Positions 9,906 through 56,955 of a stretch of 64,000 nucleotides of DNA are shown piece after piece. Each line of letters begins with the position of its first letter. Position 1 is the first letter of the stretch. The notes beneath the pieces are model-generated. The model was not told the origin of the DNA, searched no databases, and saw only the letters and a list, made by a program, of their open reading frames with translations. Both the position numbers and the translations under genes were made by a program. This DNA comes from an uncultured Holophagae bacterium. GTDB lineage: Bacteria > Acidobacteriota > Thermoanaerobaculia > Thermoanaerobaculales > Sulfomarinibacteraceae. The DNA is taken from positions 27,245 to 91,244 of the forward strand of contig CAVWIJ010000006.1 in NCBI GenBank assembly GCA_963754985.1, given 5' to 3'.

Positions 9906-12675
9906 TCAGTCCGCCCGCTGCGGCGGGATGGTGATCGGATCGCCATCCCGGTTCACCCGGAACGCCCTGACGTACAGCGGGCCGCTCGCGCTCACCTCGA
10001 GCCGCTTGTTTCGTCCCCCGTGGTTGGGGTTCACGACTGCGATGATGCTGTTGGTCTGGACCAGCTCGCCGCCCCGCACGGTGAGCGTGGTCTGCCCTTC
10101 GGACGCTCCGGTGGCGCCGTCGTAGAGCTCCACGGTGAGGGTGGCGGTGGCCGACCCCGGGTTGAAGGCGGCGATGTGACTCCGCTCCCGGCCACTCTGG
10201 TCGTTGACCTCGCGCAGGCCGAGCAGGTGGTAGGTCACGCCGGTCTGGATCTGCTCTCCCGGCAGCATGCCCGGGATGTCCTGGCCGGCGGTCCCCACCA
10301 CCTGGCCCTGCTGGTTGCGGTAGATAGCGAACTCGCGTCCGGTGGCGGCGAGCAGGGTGCCGTTCAGCGACGTGAGGCGCAGCGTGCCGACCCCCTGGAG
10401 CCCGAAGAGATCGCCCACGAAGTCCTCGTAGCCCATGGTTCGACCGGCGGGGATGGTGAAGGTCGTGCTCTGGTTCACGCCCGGCGTCCCGCGCGCGAAG
10501 AAGTCGGCGCGGACCGAGGCCTGCCCCTGGCTGAAGTTGGTGACGCTGGCCGAGCCGCTGAACTCGTTGAGCCCCTGGATCGGCCCCAGCTCGAGCAGGG
10601 TCACCGCCGGCGCGCCGCCGGTGACCGGGAGGATCGTGGTCGGGTCGTTGGTCCCGGTGTAAGCGATGTTGCCGTCGAGAATGCTGGCGTAGGCCAGCGC
10701 CTTACCCGAGGTCACCGCCACCGCGATCACGATGTCATCGGTCGGCGGGATGTGGAAGACGTTGAAGATGTTGTTGAGCTGCCGGCTGTCGCCCCGGTCG
10801 AGGGCAAATGTCTGGCCCGCCGCCAGCGGCGTGCCGATCCGCTCCTGCAAGGTCACCGTGACCTGGGTGCCGTCCGCCAGCCCCATCAGCCCGACGTTGA
10901 CCCGGTAGACCTGGGCGTTGACGGTGCTCGCGAGATAGCCCACCTGCCCGGCCGCGAGCGCATCCGCCTCGCGCAGCGCCGGGAAGAACTGGCCGAACTC
11001 GCTGCCGTCGCTGTTGCGCGCGAAGACCACGCTCTGGGCGAGGAGATCGCCGCCGCCGCCCCTGAGCTCGAGCAGCAGGCTGCCCACGGCCGGAGTGCTG
11101 CCGCTGAAGCCGAACCAGGCTGCCAGGGGATCGGTCACGCTGAGCTGGGTGTTGGCCGGCAAGGAAACCACCTCGGTGCGGGGCGTGCCGCCGAGGTCGG
11201 CTCGCGGCGTGTAGGTCACGTCCACCTGGCGGCTCTGACCGCTCGGGTTGAACAGGTCGACGCGGGAGGTGAAGAAGGCCCCGCTTCCCTGCACCCTGGC
11301 CACCGCCGGGATCGCCACCGCCTGGCTGGGCGGAGTGAAGACCTGGTAGAGGCGCCCCTGCACGCTGAAGCCGTTGCCGTCGTTGCCCGGGCTGCCGTTG
11401 CTCTCCCAGACCACGAGCAGCCGGCCGGTCGGAGCGAGCACCACCGCCGGGAACTGCTGGGCATTCGTGGTGTAGCTGTTGGCCTGAACATCCGCCGCGT
11501 CAAGGGCGACACCGTCCGCATCGAAGGCCCGAAACTGGACGCTGTAATCGGAGTTGTCGTTGCCGGCCGAGCCGTAGCTCTGCCAGGCAATGCCGTAGAA
11601 GCCGTTTGAGGCGATGGTCGCCGAGGGATAGCGCTGATCGTCGTTCGTGTAGGTGTTGATCTGGACGTCGTTGTCATCGAGAAACTCGCCGCTGGCATCC
11701 AGGCGCCGTGCCTGCACCGAGAGCCGCGAGGTGTCGCTTCCGAAGGTGCCGCCGAAGCTCTCCCAGGCGACGACGGCCCCCTCGGGACCCATCGCGACCG
11801 ACGGCGAACTCTGGGAGCCGGTCGGGTAGGTGTTGGCCGTCTGCTGGGGCGCGTCGGCGGTGATGCCTGCTGATGCCAGGTTGTCCGCCGTGAAGAAGCG
11901 GATCGCGATGTCGTTGCTCGTGGCGGGCTCCCTCCACGCGACCAGGTAGCGCGAGCCTCCGTCGCTCGCGATGGCCGGCTCATCCTGGTCGCCCGGGGTG
12001 ATGTCATTGACGAGGAACTGGTCGAAGAAGCTCCCGGTGCCCGCCCGGAAGCGGCGGCCCTGGATGCTGATGCCGGGATCGCCGCCGGCGCCACCAGCAC
12101 TTTTCCAGACCACGACGAAGTCGCCGTTGTCCGCCATCGCGACGACCGGTGCGCCCTGGGTGCCGGAGGTGTGACGCGCTGTTGACCAGCAGCTCGGCGC
12201 CCACCTTGGCGCCGGCGGCGTTGTAGCGCTGGGCCATGATGTCGAAGTCGGACGTCCCGTGGTTGCTCTCCCAGACGACGACGAAGGCGCCGCTCGAGCT
12301 CCTCGCCACCGCCGGCGACTTCTGCTCGTTCGCGGTCGAGGTGTTGACCTGGAACTCCGGCCCGACGGCGGCGCCCGCCGCATCGAAGAGCCGAGCCTGG
12401 ATCGAGCGGCTGGAGCTGTCGTTCCCGCCGGAGCTGTAGCTCTCCCAGACGACAACGAAGTTGCCGGCCACGTCGGCCGCCACGGCAGGCAGCTGCTGCG
12501 CGCTGCCGGTCACGGTGTTGACCTGGAACTGCGCGGTGAGGGGACCGCTGGCGAGCGCTGCCTGAGAGAGCAGCAGCGCGGCGGTCGCCACGACGAGCAC
12601 CGCCGCTCGCCGGTCCAGGTCGCGCACGACGGTTGAAGGGGTCCGGTGGAGTGACGTCTGGCGTTGACGAGACAA
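9906..12675 (-). CDS. large secreted protein: N-terminal FQVNT..Q..PAVA..FVVVW repeats plus duplicated C-terminal putative anchor domain; frameshift near 12175
   Basis: SD AGGAGG before TTG 12675; signal-like hydrophobic stretch; about six repeats of '(Q/A)VNTYT..Q..P.VA...G..VV.WES'; C-terminal 'IPAVARVQGSGAFFTSRVDLFNP...GDPITIP'. Confidence 0.8.
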
Positions 12676-47050: not shown

Positions 47051-47186
47051 GCCTCCAGCATGCCACGGCGGCGCCCGTCCGCAAGCGCCGGCAGGGAGGC
47101 CGGCGCCGGGCGGCTCCGGGCGGAGAGCCATTGACGAGCCTGCCACCGCGCGCCCAGACTAGCGGACGCGTGGCAGGGAGGCCGGA

Positions 47187-48644
47187 ATGATCGTGCGTTG
47201 CGCCGTCGTCCTTTGCATGGCCGCGGCCGCCGCCGGCTGCTCGAGCCTCGGGCCGCGCGGCCTGACCGCCGCGTCGCCGGTGCCCGAGGCGCCCGAGCGC
47301 CCGTCGCAGCTCAGCCCGCCGGCCCCTCCCGAGATGCCGAGCCCGGTGATCCCCGAGCACCTGCTCGAGGAGGGCGCCACCTTCACCCTCGCCGACGTGG
47401 TCGACATCGCGCTGCGCAACAACCCGGTGACCAGGACCGCCTGGCTGGAGGCGCTCTCCGCAGCGGCCGAGCTCGGCAGCACGCGCTCGGCCTACTACCC
47501 GCGCCTCGACCTGACGATCGACGCCACGCGCACCCAGCAGAGCGCCCTGGGTGGACAGTTCGATTTTCTCCAGACCAGCTACGGACCGACCGTCGACCTG
47601 AGCTGGCTGGTGCTCGACCTCGGCGGGCGCGCCGCCGACGCCGAGGACGCGCGGCTCGGCCTGCTGGCCGCCGACTGGACGCACAACGCCGTGGTCCAGA
47701 ACGTGATCCTCGCCGTGCAGCAGACCTTCGTCGCCGTACCTCAACGCCAAGGCCCAGCTCGAGGCCGCCCGGACCAACGTGGCTCAGGCCCAGACCGCCC
47801 TCGACGCCGCCGAGGCGCGGCACGACGCCGGGCTCGCGACCATCGCCGAGGTGCTCCAGGCGAAGACGGCGCTGTCCCAGGAGCAGCTCGCGGTCGACCG
47901 GCTGTCGGGGTCAGGTGCTGGCTCTGCGCGGCGCCCTGGCCACCGCGATGGGCCTGCCCGCCTCCACGCCGTACGACGTCGGCAATCTCCCCGCCGACCT
48001 GCCGCTCGCAGCTCGCCACCGCGACGGTCGAGGAGCTCATCGAGGAGGCTCGAGCCGCCAGGCCCGACCTCGCGGCGGCCCGGCTCGAGGCCGAGCAGGC
48101 GGCCGCCCGCATCCGCTCGGCCCGGGCGCAGGGCCTGCCGATGCTGTCGCTGGGGGCGAGCGCGAGCCGGATCTACTACGACCCTGCGACCTACGCCGAC
48201 TACGGCGACAGCTGGTCGGCGCGCCTGATGCTCGGCGTGCCGCTGTTCACCGGGTTCGAGACCAAGTACAACACCGAGAAGGCGAAGCAGGACGCCGCCG
48301 CGTCGGCCTCCCGCGCCGACACCCTCGAGCAGCAGGTGATCCTCGAGGTGTGGACCAGCTACTACGGCCTCAAGACCGCGACCCAGCTCGTGAGCACGAC
48401 CCGCGACCTGCTCGCCAGCGCGGAGCAGTCGGAGCGGGTGGCGATGGGGCGCTACCGGGAGGGGGTCGGCACCATCCTCGACCTGCTCGCGGCGCAGTCG
48501 GCGCTCGCCGACGCGCGCGCCGAGGAGATCCTCGCCAGGTCCTCGTGGTTCTACGCGCTGGCGCAGCTCGCTCACGACACCGGCGTCGCCTCGCCGACTC
48601 TCCAGGCCACGGTGGCCGTCATCGAAGAGAAGGAAAGCCCATGA
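47187..48644 (+). CDS. TolC-family outer-membrane efflux lipoprotein; frameshifted
   Basis: Lipobox AAGC; TLADVVDIALRNNP; RPDLAAAR; VPLFTG; RYREGVGTILDLLAAQ. Confidence 0.9.
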   Translation: MIVRCAVVLCMAAAAAGCSSLGPRGLTAASPVPEAPERPSQLSPPAPPEMPSPVIPEHLLEEGATFTLADVVDIALRNNPVTRTAWLEALSAAAELGSTRSAYYPRLDLTIDATRTQQSALGGQFDFLQTSYGPTVDLSWLVLDLGGRAADAEDARLGLLAADWTHNAVVQNVILAVQQTFVAVPQRQGPARGRPDQRGSGPDRPRRRRGAARRRARDHRRGAPGEDGAVPGAARGRPAVGVRCWLCAAPWPPRWACPPPRRTTSAISPPTCRSQLATATVEELIEEARAARPDLAAARLEAEQAAARIRSARAQGLPMLSLGASASRIYYDPATYADYGDSWSARLMLGVPLFTGFETKYNTEKAKQDAAASASRADTLEQQVILEVWTSYYGLKTATQLVSTTRDLLASAEQSERVAMGRYREGVGTILDLLAAQSALADARAEEILARSSWFYALAQLAHDTGVASPTLQATVAVIEEKESP

Positions 48645-49856
48645 CACAGCGATCGATCGGTGCGCTCGTTCCGGCCGCCGGATCCCGCTCCCGGCACCCC
48701 GCGCGGCAGGCCGCGTCGCGGCTCGCCGCGGCCGTCGCGGCGGGCTCGTCCTGGCGCTCGCGGCCGGCGGCTGCGGCCGCTCCGGCACGGACGCAGCAGG
48801 GCAGGCCGGCCGCCGGTCCCGGTGACCGTGGGCACGGTCGAGCAGAAGACCGTGCCGGTCAGCTTCCGCGCCATCGGCAACGTCGAGCCGATCGAGACGG
48901 TCGCGGTGAGGGCCCGCATCGGCGGCGAGCTGCAGCGGGTCTGCTTCGACGGAGGGCCAGACCGTCCGCGCCGGGCAGACCGCTGTTCGCGATCGACCCC
49001 CGCCCCTACCGCGCGGCGCTCGCCCAGGCCGAGGCGCAGCTCGCCCGAGACCAGGCGCTGCTCGCCAAGGCCGAGGCCGACATCGCGCGCTACGCCGACC
49101 TCGTCAAGCAGGACTACGTCACCAAGGAGCAGTACGACCAGATCACGCGCCAACGCCGCGGCGCTGCGGGCCGCGGTCGCGGCCGACCAGGCCACCGTCG
49201 AGACCGCCCGGCTCAACCTCGACTACTGCACGATCCGCTCGCCGGTCGCCGGGCGCACCGGCAACGCTCATCGTCAAGGTCGGCAACCTGGTCAAGGCGA
49301 ACGACGACCAGCCGCTGGTCACCATCAACCAGATCCGCCCGATCTACGTCGCCTTCTCGGTGCCGGCGCAGCTGCTGCCCGCGGTGATCGCGCGCGCCGC
49401 GCCGGGATCGATCCAGGTCGTGGCGTCGCGTGCCCGGCGAGCCGACGCCGGCGGCCGAGGGACGCTTGACGCTTCGTCGACAACGCCGTCGACGCCGCGA
49501 CCGGCACGATCCTGCTCAAGGCCACCTTCGCCAACGAGGACGAGCGCGCTCTGGCCGGGCGCAGTTCGTCGACGTGACGGTCATCGCTGGGCGAGGAGCC
49601 GGACCGCGTCGTCGTGCCCGGCGGCGGCCGTCCAGACCGGCCAGCAGGGCCAGTACGTCTTCGTCGTCAAGCGCCGACCGGACGGTCGAGCTGCGGCCGG
49701 TGCAGGTCGCCCGGCATGGACGAGCGACGAGGCGGTCATCGCCGAGGGCCTCGCGGCCGGCGAGACGGTCGTCACCGACGGCCAGCTCCGGCTGGTGCCG
49801 GGGGCCGCGATCGAGGTCAAGGAGCCGGCGAGGCCGCGCGGGGACGCGAGCCATGA
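48641..49856 (+). CDS. RND efflux periplasmic adaptor (MdtA-like); many frameshifts
   Basis: AIGNVEPIETVAVRARIGGEL, LFAIDPRPY, LNLDYCTIRSPVAGRTG, DNAVDAATGTILLKATF.N, GLAAGETVVTDGQ; ATGA overlaps at both ends. Confidence 0.85.
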
Positions 49857-52800
49857 ACATCTCCGAGCTCTTCATCCGCCGGCCGGTCATGACCACGCTC
49901 GTCATGGCCGGGCATCCTGCTCTTCGGCATCATGGCCTACCGGCTGCTGCCGGTCAGCGACCTGCCGAACGTGGACTTCCCGACCATCTCGGTCGTCGGC
50001 CGTCGCTGCCCGGGCGCCAGCCCGGAGACGATGGCCTCGTCGGTGGCGACGCCGCTCGAGAAGGCAGTTCTCGACCATCGCCGGCATCGACTCGATGACC
50101 TCGTCGAGCTCGCTCGGGCACGCACCCAGATCACGCTCCAGTTCGCCCTCGACCGCGACATCGACGCCGCCGCCCAGGACGTGCAGGCGGCCATCGCCCG
50201 CGCCAGCCGGCAGCTGCCGCCGGACATGCCGTACCCCGCCCTCCTACCAGAAGGTCAACCCGGCCGACCAGCCGATCCTCTTCCTCGCCCTGACCTCGCC
50301 GACGCTGCCGCTGTCCGCGCTCGACGAGTACGGCCGAGACCATGATCGCCCAGCGCATCTCGACGGTCAGCGGGCGTGGCCCAGGTGCAGGTCTACGGCT
50401 CGCAGAAGTACGCCGTGCGCATCCAGCTCGACCCGCGCGCGCTGGCCACGCCGCGGCATCGGCATCGACGAGGTCGTCGCGCGCCGTCCAGGCCGGCCAA
50501 CGTCAACCTGCCGACCGGCATCCTGTACGGCCCGGACAAGGCCTTCACCGATCCAGGCCGACCGGCCAGCTCACCGACGCCGCGGCCTACCGGCCGCTCG
50601 ATCGTCGCCTACCGCAACGGCCCGCCGGTCCGCCTCGAGCGAGCTCGGCACGCGTCGTCGACAGCGTCGAGAACGACAAGACCGCCGCCTGGTTCATCGA
50701 CCAGCGCGGCGATCGTCCTGGCGGTCCAGCGCCAGCCCGGCACCAACACCGTCGCGGTCGCGCGACGCGGTCAAGGCGCTGCTGCCGACCTTCCGCGCGC
50801 AGCTGCCGGCCTCGCGTGTCGACTGCACGTCCTGTTCGACCGCTCGCGAGTCGATCCACGAGTCGGTCAACGACGTCAAGTTCACCCTGCTGCCTCACCC
50901 TGGTCCTGGTCGTGCTGGTGATCTTCCTCTTCCTGCGCAACCTCTCGGCCACCGTCATCCCGCGCCTGGCGCTGCCGATGTCGATCGTCGGCACCTTCGC
51001 CGTCATGTACCTGCTCGGCTACAGCCTCGACAACCTGTCGCTGATGGCGCTGACGCTGTCGGTCGGCTTCGTCGTCGACGACGCCATCGTCATGCTCGAG
51101 AACATCGTCCGCCACATGGAGATGGGCAAGACGCCGCTCGCAGGCGGCGCTCGACGGCTCGCGCGAGATCGGCTTCACCATCGTCTCGATGACGCTGTCG
51201 CTGGCCGCGGTCTTCATCCCGGTCCTGTTCATGGGCGGCATCGTCGGCCGGCTGTTCCGCGAGTTCGCGGTCACCATCGGCGTCGCGGTCCTGATCTCGG
51301 GCTTCGTCTCGCTGACGCTGACGCCGATGCTCGTCGCAGCCGCTTCCTGCGGCCGCCGCGCGAGGTCCAGCACCACGGCGGCTCTACAACGCCTTCGAGC
51401 GCGTCTTCGCCGGCGATGCTGCGGCGTCTACGAGCGCGGGCCTGCGGCTGGTCGCTCGCGCCACCGGCGCGACCATGGTGCTGCTCACGCTCGGCGATCA
51501 CTGGCCGCCACCGTCGTGCTGTTCGTGATCGATCCCCAAGGGCTTCCTCCCCAGCGAGGACATCGGCCAGCATCTTCGGCCAGACCGAGGCGGCCGAGGG
51601 CATCTCCTTCGACGCCATGGTGCGAGCACCAGCAGGCGGTCGCCGCGGTCGCTCGCGCAGCCGACCCGAACGTCGAGGCGTTCATGTCCATCGGCCGGCG
51701 GCCGCGGCGGCATGGGCGGCGGCAACACCGGGCATCTTCTTCATCCGCCTCAAGCCGCGCGCCGAGCGCGAGCTCACCGCCGACGAGGTCGTCGAGCGAG
51801 CTGCGGCCGAAGCTCGCCGCAGGTGCCCGGGCATCCGCGTCTTCCTCCAGAACCCGCCGCCGATCCAGCATCGGCGGCCGCATGACCCGGAGCCAGTACC
51901 AGTTCACCCTGCAGGGCCCGGACACCGACGAGCTCTACCGCGTACGCGCCCGCTGCTCGAGGCACGAGCTGCGCGCCCTGCCCGGCTGTCAGGACGTCAC
52001 CACGCGACCTGCAGCTCAAGAACCCGCAGGTCAACGTCGAGATCGACCGCGACCAGGCCGCCGGCGCTCGGCGTCACCGCCGCAGCAGATCGAGGAGGCG
52101 CTGTACACCGCCTACGGCTCGCGCCAGATCTCGACCATCTACGCGCCCAACAACCAGTACCGGGTGATCCTGGAGCTGCTGCCCGAGTACCAGACGCGAC
52201 CCCGCCGCCCTGTCGCTGCTCTACGTCCGCTCGCTCGAGCGGCGAGCTGGTGCCGCTCGACGCGCTGGTCGACGCTCGACGCCGGGCGTCGGCCCGCTGA
52301 CGGTCAACCACTCGGGCCAGCTGCCCGTCGGTGACGCTCTCGTTCAACCTCGCGCCCGGGCGTCTCGCTCGGCGAGGCCGTCGCCGCGGTCGAGCAGCTG
52401 GCGCGCGAGACGCTGCCCGCCACCGATCAGCGACCAGCTTCCAGGGCACGGCGCAGGCGTTCCAGTCGTCGCTGCAGGGGCTCGGGCTGCTGCTGGTGCT
52501 GGCGATCCTGGTCATCTACATGGTGCTCGGCATCCTCTACGAGAGCTTCATCCACCCGCTCACGATCCTGTCGGCGCTGCCGTTCGCCGGCTTCGGCGCG
52601 CTGCTGACGCTGCTGCTCTTCGGCGTCGAGCTCACCATCTACGCCTTCGTCGGCATCATCATGCTGGTCGGCCTGGTGAAGAAGAACGGCATCATGATGA
52701 TCGACTTCGCGCTCGAGGCGCAGCGCAACGGAGGGCAAGACGCCCGCGCGACGCGATCTACGAGGCCTGCCTGATCCGCTTCCGGCCGATCATGATGACC

Positions 52801-53029
52801 ACGATGGCGGCGCTGATCGGCACGCTGCCGATCGCGCTCGGCTTCGGCGCCGGCGCCGAGGCGCGCCGCCCGCTCGGCCTGGCGGTGGTCGGCGGCCTGC
52901 TCTTCTCGCAGTCGCTGACGCTCTTCGTGACGCCGGTGTTCTACATCTACATGGAGTCGCTGCAGGCGCAAGCTCGGCCGCTGGCTGTGGTTCCTCGGCG
53001 GCCGGACGCACGAGACGCCGGCGGCCTGA
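49853..53029 (+). CDS. RND efflux permease (MdtB/C-like); heavily frameshifted
   Basis: [105 protein letters not shown]. Confidence 0.92.
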
Positions 53030-53038
53030 GGATGCGAA

Positions 53039-53067
53039 GGCGGCCCGGGCAGCGAGCCCGGGCCGCC
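53039..53067. terminator. hairpin between convergent RND and cytochrome genes
   Basis: GGCGGCCCGGGC-AGCGA-GCCCGGGCCGCC 12-bp stem. Confidence 0.6.
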
Positions 53068-53072
53068 CGACT

Positions 53073-55998
53073 TCACTGGGACACGATCGCCACCGGCACC
53101 GTGATCGGGTCGCCGGTGGCGCGGCTGACCACCGAGGCGTAGGCCCACACCCGGGCGCCACCCGTCATCACTTCGACCGTCGCCCACGCCACCGGCACGT
53201 CGCCCGGAGCGATCATCGAGAGGATGTCGTTGATCTGGCGCCACTGGCCGGCCGGCACCACACTCCCTCGCACGCCCGAGCAGGCCACCGTCGGACCCGT
53301 ACACGAGACGCGCACCGTCGCCTCGATCTCCGACGAGTTGAGGAAGCCGACGTTGGTCCGGTAGTCGGCGTCGCGGGCAATCCCCGCCAGCACGCCGAGC
53401 TGGCCCTGCTCGAGGCACTGCCCCTGCTGGACGGCCGGGAAGTACTGGCCGTAGCTGCCGAGCGGGGACAGGTTGTAGGTGCGCGAGACCACTACCAGCT
53501 CGCCGGTGGCCTCGATGTGCAGGGCACCGGTCGAGCTGCGGCTGAGCCCGAGCAGAGACACCATCACGTCGTCGTAGCGCACGGTCTCGCCGGGGGCGAG
53601 GGACACCGGCGCGGTGGTCGACTGCGACCCGTCGAGATAGGTCAGGGTCACATCGACGCCCGCAGCGTGCGGGTTGAGGAGCACGAGGTCGGTGCGCCAC
53701 ACCGAGCCCTCGGCGCCGGGGGCGTGCGAGGCGACCAGGACCGCGCTCCAGGCCGCTCCGCCGGCCGGCCCGATCGAGATCGTCCCGGTCGAGCTGCAGC
53801 TCGCGCCGTCGGCGGTCGCGGTGAGGGTCCAGTCGTAGCTTCCCGGCGTGCCGTAGGCGTGGCTGACCTGCGCGCCGTGGCCGGTCTCGCCGTCGCCGAA
53901 GTCCCAGGTCAGCGCCGGCGTCTCGGTGCAGCCACTCGGCGTGACGGTGCCGACGAAGCTCACCAGCGCGCCCGCCGGCGCGCTCGCCGGGGCCGACGCC
54001 GAACACTCGAGGGTGCAGGCCGAGCCGGCGACGGTCAGGGTGACGTGGCCGAGGTTGGAGTCGGCCATGCCGTCCCAGGCGGCGAAGGTGAAGCTGTCAG
54101 CTCCGTTGAAGCCGGGGAACGCGCGATACCAGGCGGTCCGGCCGACCATCCACGCGACGCCCGCCGCCGGCTGCGACACCACGCGCAGGGTGAGGGTGTC
54201 ATTGTCGGCGTCGGTCGCCGTCAGCGGAATGGAGACCGCCACGTTCGCCGTCGCGGAAGCCGCGGCATCGACCACCACCGGCGCGTGGTTCGGGCTCGGC
54301 GACTCGCTCGCCGGGCCCGTTGTGGCAGGTGTAGCAGCCGATCTGGAAGCCGCGCCAGAAGTGCTTGGTGCCGAACGTCGGTCGTGAGGGTGCGGTCGCC
54401 CTGGGATCGCGACAGCACGGTGCCGCGGTAGTCGGTGCCGTGGCAGGCGCGGCAGGACTCCTGGGTCACCTTGGCCGCCGTCTTCGTGGTCGTCGACCCA
54501 GCCCTGGCCGACCGGGTGCATGCCGTGCGGGCCGCCGCTGGTCGTGCTCGGCGTCGTGCCGTGGCAGGCGGCGCACTCGGCGAGCAGCCCGGCGTGCCCC
54601 TGGACGTGCTGCGCTCTGGACGTTGTCGTTGACGTGCGACGACGGGGAACTCGGCGTGCGTCGAGCCGTGGCAGGCCTCGCACTGCAGGCCGCCGTGGCC
54701 GATCGAGAAGCGGTAGAGCGAGAAGCCCGCCGCCGGCGTGTCGGGGTTGGTGGCGAAGGTGTCGTCGGCCGGCTGCCGCGCACGCTCCGCGGTCGTCGAA
54801 CGCCGAGGTGTAGCGGATCTGGCCGCTGTTGCGGATCGCGGTGCCGGTGTGGCAGTTCTGGCAGGTCGGCTCGCTCGAGCCAGCCGGTGCGGCCGGCGGC
54901 GCCGACCGTCGCTCATGTCGCCGTGGCAGCTCTGGCACTGCATCGCCAGTCGTCGCCGTCGGCGGCCACCGCGCTGCCCATCGCGCCGCGCAGGCAGCGG
55001 GTCGCGGAGCCGGGGTGGCAGCGGTAGCAGGCGGAGCGGTTGTCGGAGTCGCCGAGGGTGCAGCGCCGGTCGTCGGGTCGATGACGCGCGGCGTGGCAGG
55101 CGTGGACCGACCGCGGTCAGCGGCGGGACGCCCGGCGACGCCGGTGCCCGGGAGCGCGTCGGAGGCGTGGCAGCGCGGCGCAGAGGATCGGCGTGCCGCC
55201 GCGTCGACCGTCGGCGTAGAGCCCGCTGCGGGTCGTAGCCGACGCCGCGAGCGCGGCCGCCTGGAACGCGGGCTGGCGGCCGCGGCTGCTCGTCGTGCAG
55301 GCGGAGGATGTTCAGCCGGTAGTCGCGCTCCGGGTCGGGGTCGTTGACCCAGCCGGCGGCGGGCTGGGCCGCCGGGCGAGCTGCCCGAGGCGTGGCAGGC
55401 GCGGCAGTCCATCTCGTCGGAGACCGGCAGCACGATGTCGGTGGTCGCGAGCATCGCGCCCGCGCCGTCGCGCGCCGACCAGGCGCATCATCGGGTAGGG
55501 GTTCTTGCGCTGCCGGCATCGTCGTAGGGCGTGATCGGGATGCCCTCGGCGCTGAACCAGCTGCTGGTCGCGCGTCGCAAGGTCATCGCCTGCGGCGTGT
55601 TGGCGGCGCCCGGCATGGCGCAGCCGGCGAGCCCCTCGTCGGCCGGCGAGCGACGACGCCGAAGAGCGCTCGCGACGTGGTCCCAGAAGTTGGTCTTGCC
55701 CGACCGACGTCGTGTTGATCGAGCCGGCGGGATCGGCGCACCGCCTCGTAGGTGACGCGTGATCCCGGCCGGGTTGGTCACGAGCTGCCCGTCGGCGTCG
55801 ATCGAGCTGGGCGTGGATGGTGTTGTAGGGCGGCAGGATGGCGAACACCGAGAAGTCCGCGTCCATGCAGTGCATGCCGAGGTTGTTCCAGCCGATCAGG
55901 GTATAGCCGACAGGCGCGGCTCCAGCAGCCCCTCCGCTCAACATCCAGGCGAGAAGCGTCGATCCAAGAGCGATTGCAGTTGTCGTGCGCCGATGCAT
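53073..55998 (-). CDS. secreted nine-heme c-type cytochrome with Ig-like, PKD and C-terminal anchor-like domains; heavily frameshifted
   Basis: Signal peptide; [23 protein letters not shown]; CxxCH at about 55400, 55175 (1-nt insertion), 55020, 54930, 54855, 54675, 54567, 54447, 54329; NHAPV..L.ATDADND.L; WDFGDG..SHAY..PG.Y. Confidence 0.85.
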
Positions 55999-56562
55999 GG
56001 TGGCCTCCCCCGCTGCGTTGTGTCCGTGTGCCGCGGCCGCGCCTGTCGCGAACGTCTGCAGCCGCAAGCGTTATCTGAGAAAACCAGGCCCTAGCATACG
56101 CCCACTTGCGATCGCGGAGGTCGCCATCGGAGCTCTCGTCACCCGAGACGAGGCGGCGCGTTGTCGCCGTGATCAACGCCGCGGGCAGCGATGGCGGAGC
56201 GGAAGTCCGTCCGGTTGATCGGCGTTGGCGAGGCACGCGACCTCGGCGAGGCGTGCTCAATCGACCGCCACAGGGTCAGGGTCGCCCGGGTCATTCTGTG
56301 ACCCTGGTCCTAGCCGCAAACGAGATCACGTATCAAATTCTTCACTGCCCGGCCCGGGTGGACCGCCAGGTCCGCGGCCCGCCCGCCAATGCCAGGGGAA
56401 GCGGAGGATGCGATGGTCCGCAGCGTCGCACAAGCCAGCGACCAACGCAGATCCGGCGGGATGGCAGGCCCGGGCAGCGCGCGCTCCCCGCCGCGCCACA
56501 CACGACCGGCGAAACGCCCGATCACCTCAATACAGATCCCATCAGCCCGGGAGGAACCGTCA

Positions 56563-56955
56563 ATGGAACATCGACGACATCTCGCTTCGTTCAGGCTGCC
56601 CGCCGTCGCCCTCGTCGCCGCGGCCGCCCTGATGTTCACGGCACCCGCGGGCGCCGACCGGAGCTCGTCGGCGAGCAGCTCCGGCAGCATGCGCTACTTG
56701 ATCATCACCAGCCACACGCCGGAGAAGTGCCTCGCCGACCTCGACGCGGTGCTGGCGAGCAAGCCCGACATGCTGGACCGCATCGAGTGGGGCTGCAAAA
56801 GCGGCGACCACACCGGCTATCTCATCGTCGACGCGCCGACCGAGCAGGCGGCGCGGCAGATGCTGCCGGCCCCGATGCAGGCGGGCGCCCGGGTGGTCAC
56901 GCTCAGCCGCTTCAGCGCGGACGACATCCGGTCGTTCCACCAGATGAAGAAGTGA
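56563..56955 (+). CDS. small secreted hypothetical protein with His/Cys motif
   Basis: SD GGAGGA; signal peptide; 'RYLIITSHTPEKC...WGCKSGDHTGYLIVDA'. Confidence 0.75.
   Translation: MEHRRHLASFRLPAVALVAAAALMFTAPAGADRSSSASSSGSMRYLIITSHTPEKCLADLDAVLASKPDMLDRIEWGCKSGDHTGYLIVDAPTEQAARQMLPAPMQAGARVVTLSRFSADDIRSFHQMKK

Follow-up and report, generated by a model that had tools for sequence, protein, structure and literature searches.

What is encoded by a gene that, as assembled, runs through all three reading frames; is the gene intact in its host; and where would its product act? These questions are raised by positions 53073..55998 (minus strand) of a window of 64,000 nucleotides (nt), by which we mean the whole stretch analysed, from an uncultured Holophagae bacterium of the Sulfomarinibacteraceae (contig C6:27245-91244 of a 4.73-Mb genome in 32 contigs, ~70% G+C). 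A preliminary description had read there a nine-heme cytochrome on a stalk of immunoglobulin (Ig)-like and PKD domains with a C-terminal anchor-like domain, and had proposed a surface-displayed electron-transfer protein. The cytochrome gene is real, its elements and nine-CxxCH pattern being far beyond chance. Its product is most likely a Sec-exported c-type cytochrome of ~960 amino acids (aa), comprising, in order, an Ig-like N-terminal domain, a nine-heme core, a Big_9-PKD stalk, and a tandem of ASRT/TM1070-like beta-sandwiches. Judging from sequence, and with modest confidence, we favor the reading that the gene is intact in nature, and that it probably encodes a secreted, surface-retained, nine-heme electron-transfer cytochrome.

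The gene begins with an ATG at 55998 and ends with a stop codon at 53075-53073, exactly where the preliminary description had placed it. DNA alignment with the intact ortholog (L002:1504-4392:-) shows that the gene, once its breaks are bridged, is the counterpart of the ~963-aa protein encoded by the closest relative. Three-frame translation recovers eight intact heme-binding motifs (CRACH 55406, CYRCH 55029, CQSCH 54937, CQNCH 54863, CEACH 54682, CAACH 54575, CRACH 54454, and CYTCH 54336), while the ninth (CAA/RCH at 55182-55167), first read as 'CAxCH', is split by a 1-nt insertion; the motifs fall in all three frames, so that the elements and nine heme sites originally reported across several frames are borne out. 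Long DNA matches over the heme region were found in 13 of 30 relatives searched, and each of the seven loci fetched holds one uninterrupted open reading frame (ORF) with exactly nine CxxCH motifs; ORFs of relatives span 923-1069 aa, apart from one shorter form of 662 aa. The closest relative (G003; same genus, 90% DNA identity) carries an intact ortholog of 963 aa with the same architecture, to which the assembled copy was aligned and against which its breaks are mostly insertions. The single ORFs of relatives also dispose of the concern that the cytochrome and the PKD/anchor parts might be separate genes. As anticipated, automatic annotation misses the cytochrome, since the intact relatives are named 'PKD', 'Ig-like' or 'hypothetical'.

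The state of the reading frame is the first matter to be weighed. Periodicity of G+C at third codon positions (GC3) indicates ~13 frame changes between 55950 and 54330, after which one frame holds as far as the stop codon. Relative to the closest ortholog there are 30 internal indels, namely 28 insertions (37 nt) and two deletions (3 nt), which are not homopolymer extensions, and 29 of which break the frame. Taken at face value, these ~29 frame-breaking indels could denote a true pseudogene, whereby the cytochrome gene and a neighboring RND pump gene decayed through many small insertions in this strain. Over 40 kb of DNA syntenic with the closest relative, however, the excess of insertions is patchy: an aligned 8.9-kb block (47111-56008) has 135 inserted versus 18 deleted bases, compared with 11/15 and 18/4 in the flanks. 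Within the block, the inserted bases are concentrated at 48.5-52.7 kb, in the RND pump, and at 54.3-56.0 kb, with 53.0-54.3 kb clean. Gene decay does not produce insertion-biased and sharply bounded patches at two unrelated loci with a clean 1.6 kb between them. In bacterial pseudogenes the bias is toward deletions, and neither large deletions nor insertion elements are seen here. GC3 stays at 0.95-1.0 inside each frame fragment, and is thus undiminished. The extra bases are missing in all relatives and in metagenome contigs: in relatives' short-read contigs from four independent metagenome runs, one or two bases are left out at 12 places, corresponding to nine insertion events among the rows listed, and none of the 12 metagenome rows listed of 63 puts a base in. 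In favor of decay, no public sequencing run was found that holds the source strain, the best run containing 0.19 of the sampled words; the metagenome contigs thus come from relatives (word share at most 0.19) and are compatible with a pseudogene in the source strain. The estimated completeness of the source genome is only 71.7%, versus 87-98% for same-genus genomes of similar size, which fits widespread indel error. Given insertion-biased, sharp-edged patches over two unrelated genes, an intact codon signal, and low completeness, we consider it very probable that the frame breaks are assembly insertion errors, which therefore need no biological explanation, and regard true gene decay as highly improbable. 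The locus also illustrates that insertion errors clustered in patches of an assembly can give a gene the look of heavy frameshifting. The affected neighbor is an RND efflux operon (47187-53142, plus strand) encoding an outer-membrane factor, a membrane-fusion protein and a pump, which is cut into many frames, with 10-19 inserted bases per 500 nt in the 48.5-52.7 kb patch relative to the closest ortholog; the pump of that relative itself likewise looks split into several ORFs.

If the gene is intact, what does it encode? Analyses of the N-terminal and heme regions used the unaltered intact ortholog rather than the assembled copy. The product opens with a 28-residue Sec-type signal peptide (55915..55998, minus strand, from translation by inspection) lacking a canonical lipobox, and signal peptides in all seven orthologs combine a basic n-region with a hydrophobic core, and have an AxA-like site immediately ahead of the first strand (signal peptides and lipoboxes were called by inspecting eight N-termini). 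There follows a domain at 55420..55914 (minus strand), broken by ~10 insertions in the assembled copy, which contains the GWNNLGMHC sequence with its near-invariant G-M-H-C. An AlphaFold2 (AF2) model of the ortholog (560 aa; mean predicted local distance difference test score (pLDDT) 88.0, predicted template modeling score 0.88), which holds no hemes, is confident (pLDDT 94-98 for residues 33-190). Residues 31-192 of the model resemble Ig-like folds (VIA-align against invasin and antibody domains gave Z of 6.8 and 6.9), and the remainder displays the loop-and-helix pattern of heme domains. The N-terminal domain matches no Pfam or NCBIfam family in the orthologs, and Foldseek comparison of the 560-aa model with the PDB returned nothing at E<=1e-3.

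The nine-heme core occupies 54300..55419 (minus strand), and is recognized from its CxxCH motifs and from Pfam matches to PF22113 and PF14522 in intact orthologs. That there are nine hemes, as the preliminary description counted, is supported by a 53-sequence alignment in which all nine motifs are invariant. The same alignment shows five further histidines without exception (His230, 291, 424, 437, and 483) and three that are at least 90% conserved (His294, 480, and 493), and Met331 is present in 52 of 53 sequences, with His in the remaining one. These eight histidines and Met331 amount to nine candidate distal ligands; therefore all hemes are probably six-coordinate, with ligation that would be His/His at eight hemes and His/Met at one, and without an open catalytic site. 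Of the GMHC motif, G41 is invariant and M42, H43, and C44 are at least 90% conserved. Cys44 and Cys326 occur together in 49 of 53 sequences and are jointly missing from the other four, and in three members the histidine of the motif is lost along with the cysteine pair. The simplest reading of this co-variation is a disulfide that probably clamps the N-terminal domain to the heme core, which fits an oxidizing, extracytoplasmic location.

The family relationships of this core are partial. PF22113, which describes domain II/IV of MtrC/MtrF, scores 42.4, 37.9, and 52.0 bits in three intact orthologs (cut-off 30), versus just 13.9 bits in the broken copy of the window; of 20 distant members, 14 match it (34-60 bits) and six do not. 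Matches to the NCBIfam families for octaheme tetrathionate reductase and DmsE are weak (E 1.4e-4 to 3e-6) and far below their cut-offs, and sequence and profile searches of the PDB gave only PKD and local heme-motif matches. Comparison by hhalign with a decaheme encoded elsewhere in the same genome gave 82% probability over hemes 3-5. That decaheme is of MtrC/OmcA type (C12:~713.6-716.2 kb; L034:538-2580:-), and has 680 aa, ten CxxCH motifs and two PF22113 domains (109.8 and 76.7 bits). The features expected of a c-type multiheme cytochrome are present, namely conserved CxxCH motifs with candidate distal ligands, an export signal (by inspection), and maturation genes. The search for maturation genes and conduits that had been proposed for this genome succeeded in part: two adjacent Cytochrom_C_asm genes (PF01578, CcmC/CcmF-like) lie at C12:557275-559402 (88.7 and 109.7 bits), and the decaheme described above is present, but no MtrB_PioB porin (PF11854) was matched. 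Neither was ResB (PF05140), in a genome whose 71.7% completeness means that its absence is not shown.

Beyond the hemes, Pfam matches in the in-frame C-terminal 408 aa of the assembled copy define the stalk. A Big_9 bacterial Ig domain lies at 54033..54290 (minus strand; PF17963, E 2.3e-11, 44.9 bits, cut-off 23.6), followed by a PKD domain at 53781..54011 (minus strand; PF18911, PKD_4, E 4e-14, 52.9 bits, cut-off 27; also PF00801, E 5.7e-9). The terminal module of ~215 aa (53076..53732, minus strand), recognized from tblastn copies, AF2, and VIA-align, contains a compensated frame slip at 53273..53307 (minus strand; one base lost at 53307 and one gained at 53273), which garbles ~11 residues; in the module alignment the sequence deviates here from the family consensus, to which the closest ortholog and other relatives conform. 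AF2 resolves the module into two sandwiches (pLDDT 92.2). Residues 4-114 superpose on TM1070 (1nc7_A; VIA-align Z 13.1, root-mean-square deviation (rmsd) 3.5, 108 of 116 residues aligned), and residues 112-218 on the Anabaena sensory rhodopsin transducer (2ii7_A; Z 9.0, rmsd 3.1, 97 of 112 aligned), while the next best structural match has a Z of 7.0. Foldseek agrees (E 2.6e-4 to 1nc7; TM score 0.75 on target). No Pfam family matched residues 190-408 of the C-terminal fragment at E<=1, the Pfam ASRT model included, and no NCBIfam family covers the module in orthologs. Each half thus resembles a member of the ASRT/TM1070 (ASRAH) superfamily. The module differs from that superfamily in being a fixed tandem of two sandwiches, which in almost every case forms the very C-terminus and which frequently occurs twice in a protein. 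Sugar binding is predicted for this superfamily, surface-protein versions included, in the available text of PMC2739507, and we read the module as a putative glycan-binding retention module and not as an export signal. The suggestion that export might rely on an anchor system is not supported, as the fold is not a known secretion signal.

The distribution of the module indicates the company that it keeps. Many other secreted proteins of the source genome carry it, and tblastn places these last ~215 aa at ~55-60 further sites there. A second, divergent copy is present in the window itself (~10632-11282, minus strand; C6:37876-38526; 25% identity, E 2.4e-8, tblastn), and a third on the same contig, outside the window, at C6:158210-158836. 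Among 156 longer carrier proteins at E<=1e-5 are subtilases, beta-lactamase-fold peptidases, M36 peptidases, and sortilin/BNR, LRR, beta-helix, and PKD proteins; of 136 fetched carriers, 121 have the module no more than 15 aa from their C-terminal end, and 88 of the 136 hold two copies. The cytochrome family itself ends variously. Of 215 fetched members with at least eight CxxCH motifs, the sandwich module closes 24 and a short LFxDGFExGD..W tail closes 16, the remaining 175 having other endings. The short tail, LFxDGFExGD..W(S/N)..P, directly follows Big_9 in place of the PKD domain and sandwich end. It is also found in one ortholog (L004, genome G017), and it ends Pro/Thr-tethered tetraheme cytochromes in the source genome (C1:147343-149934). 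The sandwich and the short tail look like interchangeable C-terminal endings.

How widespread is the protein? Searches with ortholog residues 1-555, with 8000 candidates scored, gave at least 5251 clusters (90% clustering) at E<=1e-5 among those candidates. The top matches, 62-94% identical, come from metagenome-assembled genomes of Thermoanaerobaculaceae, Thermoanaerobaculia, Acidobacteriota, and Sulfomarinibacteraceae, and are named, where names are given, 'PKD domain-containing', 'Ig-like domain-containing' or 'hypothetical'. HMMER against 1.84 billion representatives (50% clustering) returned 1925 matches at E<=1e-3, of which 544 reach E<=1e-30. When 301 genomes were sampled evenly across the phylum, 27 held a match to the heme module at E<=1e-30, with 61-66% identity to the query even in other classes, comparable to the 63-68% among orthologs within the order. 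Identity that is as high between classes as within the order implies strong constraint or gene transfer, and the combination of high identity with patchy carriage suggests horizontal transfer or unusually strong constraint. Feature-based look-alikes also fall in clusters dominated by other phyla, the commonest phylum being Pseudomonadota, Thermodesulfobacteriota, Campylobacterota or Nitrospirota. One 90% cluster (that of P0153) contains fragments of 335-363 aa from the isolate Hydrogenimonas thermophila, plus a 544-aa entry on a 2.3-Mb contig; one UniRef entry names the protein 'Outer membrane cytochrome MtrC/MtrF-like domain-containing protein', and the gene may be split or mis-called there. 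In the source genome, tblastn with the intact ortholog detected no heme-module paralog at E<=1e-5, and no description of the nine-heme family was found in the literature searched. It is a large unnamed family with no solved structure and no curated family covering the whole module.

Where the protein acts is best approached through its partners. Among 20 distant members, the heme module is fused to SLH domains (P0073), PATR repeats, BACON, nine TIG domains, Big_7, and Ig_3/I-set repeats, and the PATR-fused member is named 'autotransporter-associated beta strand protein' at its source. Because of these fusions (SLH, PATR, BACON, TIG, and Ig), the cysteine pair, and a cytochrome-rich genome, surface display and extracellular electron transfer appear plausible, and a surface location is best supported on account of the domain company that the module keeps in other lineages. 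Under this reading, the protein would be exported through Sec and would receive its hemes in the periplasm from the Ccm system, the genes for which are present. It would then cross the outer membrane by some route, and would be retained at the cell surface or matrix by glycan binding of its C-terminal module, as fold and domain distribution suggest. The nine hemes may serve as a wire between other multiheme cytochromes of the cell and an external acceptor or donor, be it a mineral, a humic substance, a shuttle or a partner cell, with electrons passing in one direction or the other.

Several observations weigh against this reading. Location and function are drawn from domain associations. The heme core found no solved relative in fold searches, although it was barely probed by them, since the VIA-align lists fill with Ig-like matches to the N-domain (Z<=6.9). 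No porin, periplasmic cytochrome or other conserved neighbor adjoins the gene here or in the relatives compared, as was noted at the outset for the porin and periplasmic partner in this genome, and flanks differ among five further relatives. The missing MtrB_PioB match comes from a 71.7%-complete genome, and does not show absence. No classical GspD was identified in the genome, the secretins being one PilQ-like (AMIN-STN) and one TPR-secretin. Finally, the 61-66% identity between classes is unusual for surface cytochromes, and could point to a specific enzymatic or partner-bound role. Surface cytochromes are described as fast-evolving in Geobacter in the available text of PMC12977616.

These points bear on two alternatives. 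The protein might instead be a periplasmic electron carrier or redox enzyme, or one on the inner leaflet of the outer membrane, which is exported by Sec, matured by Ccm, and stays in the periplasm, with its Ig, PKD, and sandwich domains binding peptidoglycan, periplasmic glycans or partners. Such a role would account for the want of an identified dedicated outer-membrane export system or porin partner; for very high cross-class conservation, a trait seen more typically in enzymes or fixed complexes than in proteins of the surface; and for the weak, sub-threshold resemblance to octaheme tetrathionate reductase and DmsE. Nevertheless, the fusion partners found elsewhere (SLH, autotransporter repeats, BACON, and TIG) are surface-display modules, the C-terminal module is common to proteases and other exo-enzymes, and the Pfam match is to an outer-membrane cytochrome domain. 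Conserved sixth ligands for apparently all nine hemes also argue against a catalytic, open-site heme, and we judge retention in the periplasm to be unlikely.

Less likely still, in our estimation, is that the protein serves outside the cell not as a respiratory terminal but as a redox enzyme or sensor-adhesin, acting on a specific soluble or polymer-bound substrate to which its glycan-binding tail would direct it (in organic-matter redox or detoxification, for example), or signaling redox state on contact. The tail, a predicted sugar-binding fold (PMC2739507, available text) common to hydrolases, could target substrates in the manner of a carbohydrate-binding module. High conservation that extends to the GMHC of the N-terminal domain is also in keeping with an enzyme or sensor, as is the homolog in H. 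thermophila, a hydrogen-oxidizing isolate that is not known as a metal respirer. Opposing this, no open coordination site can be inferred, and the loss of the GMHC histidine in 3/53 members and of the cysteine pair in 4/53 indicates that the motif is not universally essential. Further, the very large cytochrome complement of the genome fits electron transfer of the respiratory type. We retain the surface-held electron-transfer cytochrome as the preferred reading.

Comparison with known systems helps to place such a protein. Terminal cytochromes of the MtrC type (MtrC, OmcA, MtrF, and UndA of Shewanella) alternate two beta-barrel domains with two pentaheme domains, carry 10-11 hemes, and bear a lipoprotein signal with a lipobox cysteine. 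The present protein resembles them in combining a domain of multiple c-type hemes with a beta-sheet domain that packs against it, in scoring above the gathering threshold for PF22113 in intact orthologs, in a tri-heme segment that aligns to the MtrC-like protein of its own genome, in hemes that are probably all six-coordinate, and in its predicted cell-surface role. It differs in having nine hemes, not ten or eleven, along an unbroken heme region where PF22113 has one main match rather than two; in an N-terminal domain that is an Ig-like sandwich, not a split barrel; in AxA-type signal sites with no canonical lipobox; in the lack of mtrA/mtrB-type genes beside the gene; and in its Big_9-PKD stalk and sandwich tail. 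The match of the heme-less model to UndA (3ucp) is insignificant (Foldseek E 1.3e-2, probability 0.20). The protein would thus work like terminal cytochromes of the MtrC/OmcA type, but departs from them in architecture, lipoprotein status, and operon context. Gram-positive metal reducers offer another parallel, as OcwA of Thermincola has nine hemes and OmhA of Carboxydothermus is anchored by SLH domains. Shared with these is the idea that a non-heme anchoring module keeps a terminal cytochrome on the envelope; OcwA also has the same number of hemes, and one family member (P0073) bears an SLH domain. The host here is unlike theirs, Omp85 proteins in its genome indicating a diderm envelope, and the anchor module is different. 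OcwA was not among PDB matches at E<=1 (single sequence) or E<=10 (profile), nor listed in the fold searches, and no solved multiheme cytochrome was matched by sequence or profile beyond local heme motifs. Nearer in phylogeny, porin-cytochrome clusters of peat Acidobacteriota and Verrucomicrobiota encode extracellular multiheme cytochromes for which extracellular electron transfer has been proposed (bioRxiv 10.64898/2026.05.27.727921, available text). These share with our case the phylum and the presumed extracellular setting, yet are defined by cytochrome-porin synteny, whereas this gene stands alone. The terms PKD, Ig-like, and Thermoanaerobaculia are absent from the available text of that preprint.

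A broader interpretation, possible though rather doubtful, is that the family constitutes an unrecognized, phylum-crossing class of free-standing surface oxidoreductases, in which a nine-heme wire with a disulfide-clamped Ig-like cap would operate without a porin-cytochrome conduit. Interchangeable C-terminal tags (the tandem ASRT-like sandwich, the short LFxDGFExGD..W tail, SLH or autotransporter repeats) would hold such proteins on envelope glycan or matrix, where they may engage a conserved partner or shuttle, and the class may have spread by gene transfer; the nearly uniform 61-66% identity between classes would be a consequence of both. Acidobacteriota are abundant in soils, sediments, and peat, and one of them, Thermoanaerobaculum aquaticum, reduces Fe(III) and Mn(IV). 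Multiheme cytochromes are many in this phylum and their substrates open, according to the available texts of PMC8100337 and bioRxiv 10.64898/2026.05.27.727921. If the protein is a surface electron-transfer terminal, then cytochrome surveys that go by name or by porin synteny miss a nine-heme family, which would be a tractable new target for structural work and electrochemistry.

The immediate surroundings consist of the convergent RND operon downstream and, upstream, a small secreted protein, a 4HBT thioesterase, and an extracytoplasmic function (ECF) sigma factor. The upstream side is not syntenic in the closest relative, and the five other relatives have differing, unrelated neighbors. The small predicted secreted protein (56389-56952, plus strand) is a 188-aa ORF with an internal signal-like segment and no Pfam match, and is likewise not syntenic with the closest relative. 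The source genome as a whole contains 21 clusters of at least four CxxCH motifs. A 4.6-kb stretch at C19:140688-145316 (minus strand) holds 62 such motifs in two frames, and further clusters of 20, 16, and 15 motifs lie at C18:301351-303251, C4:346429-348067, and C12:713280-714659.

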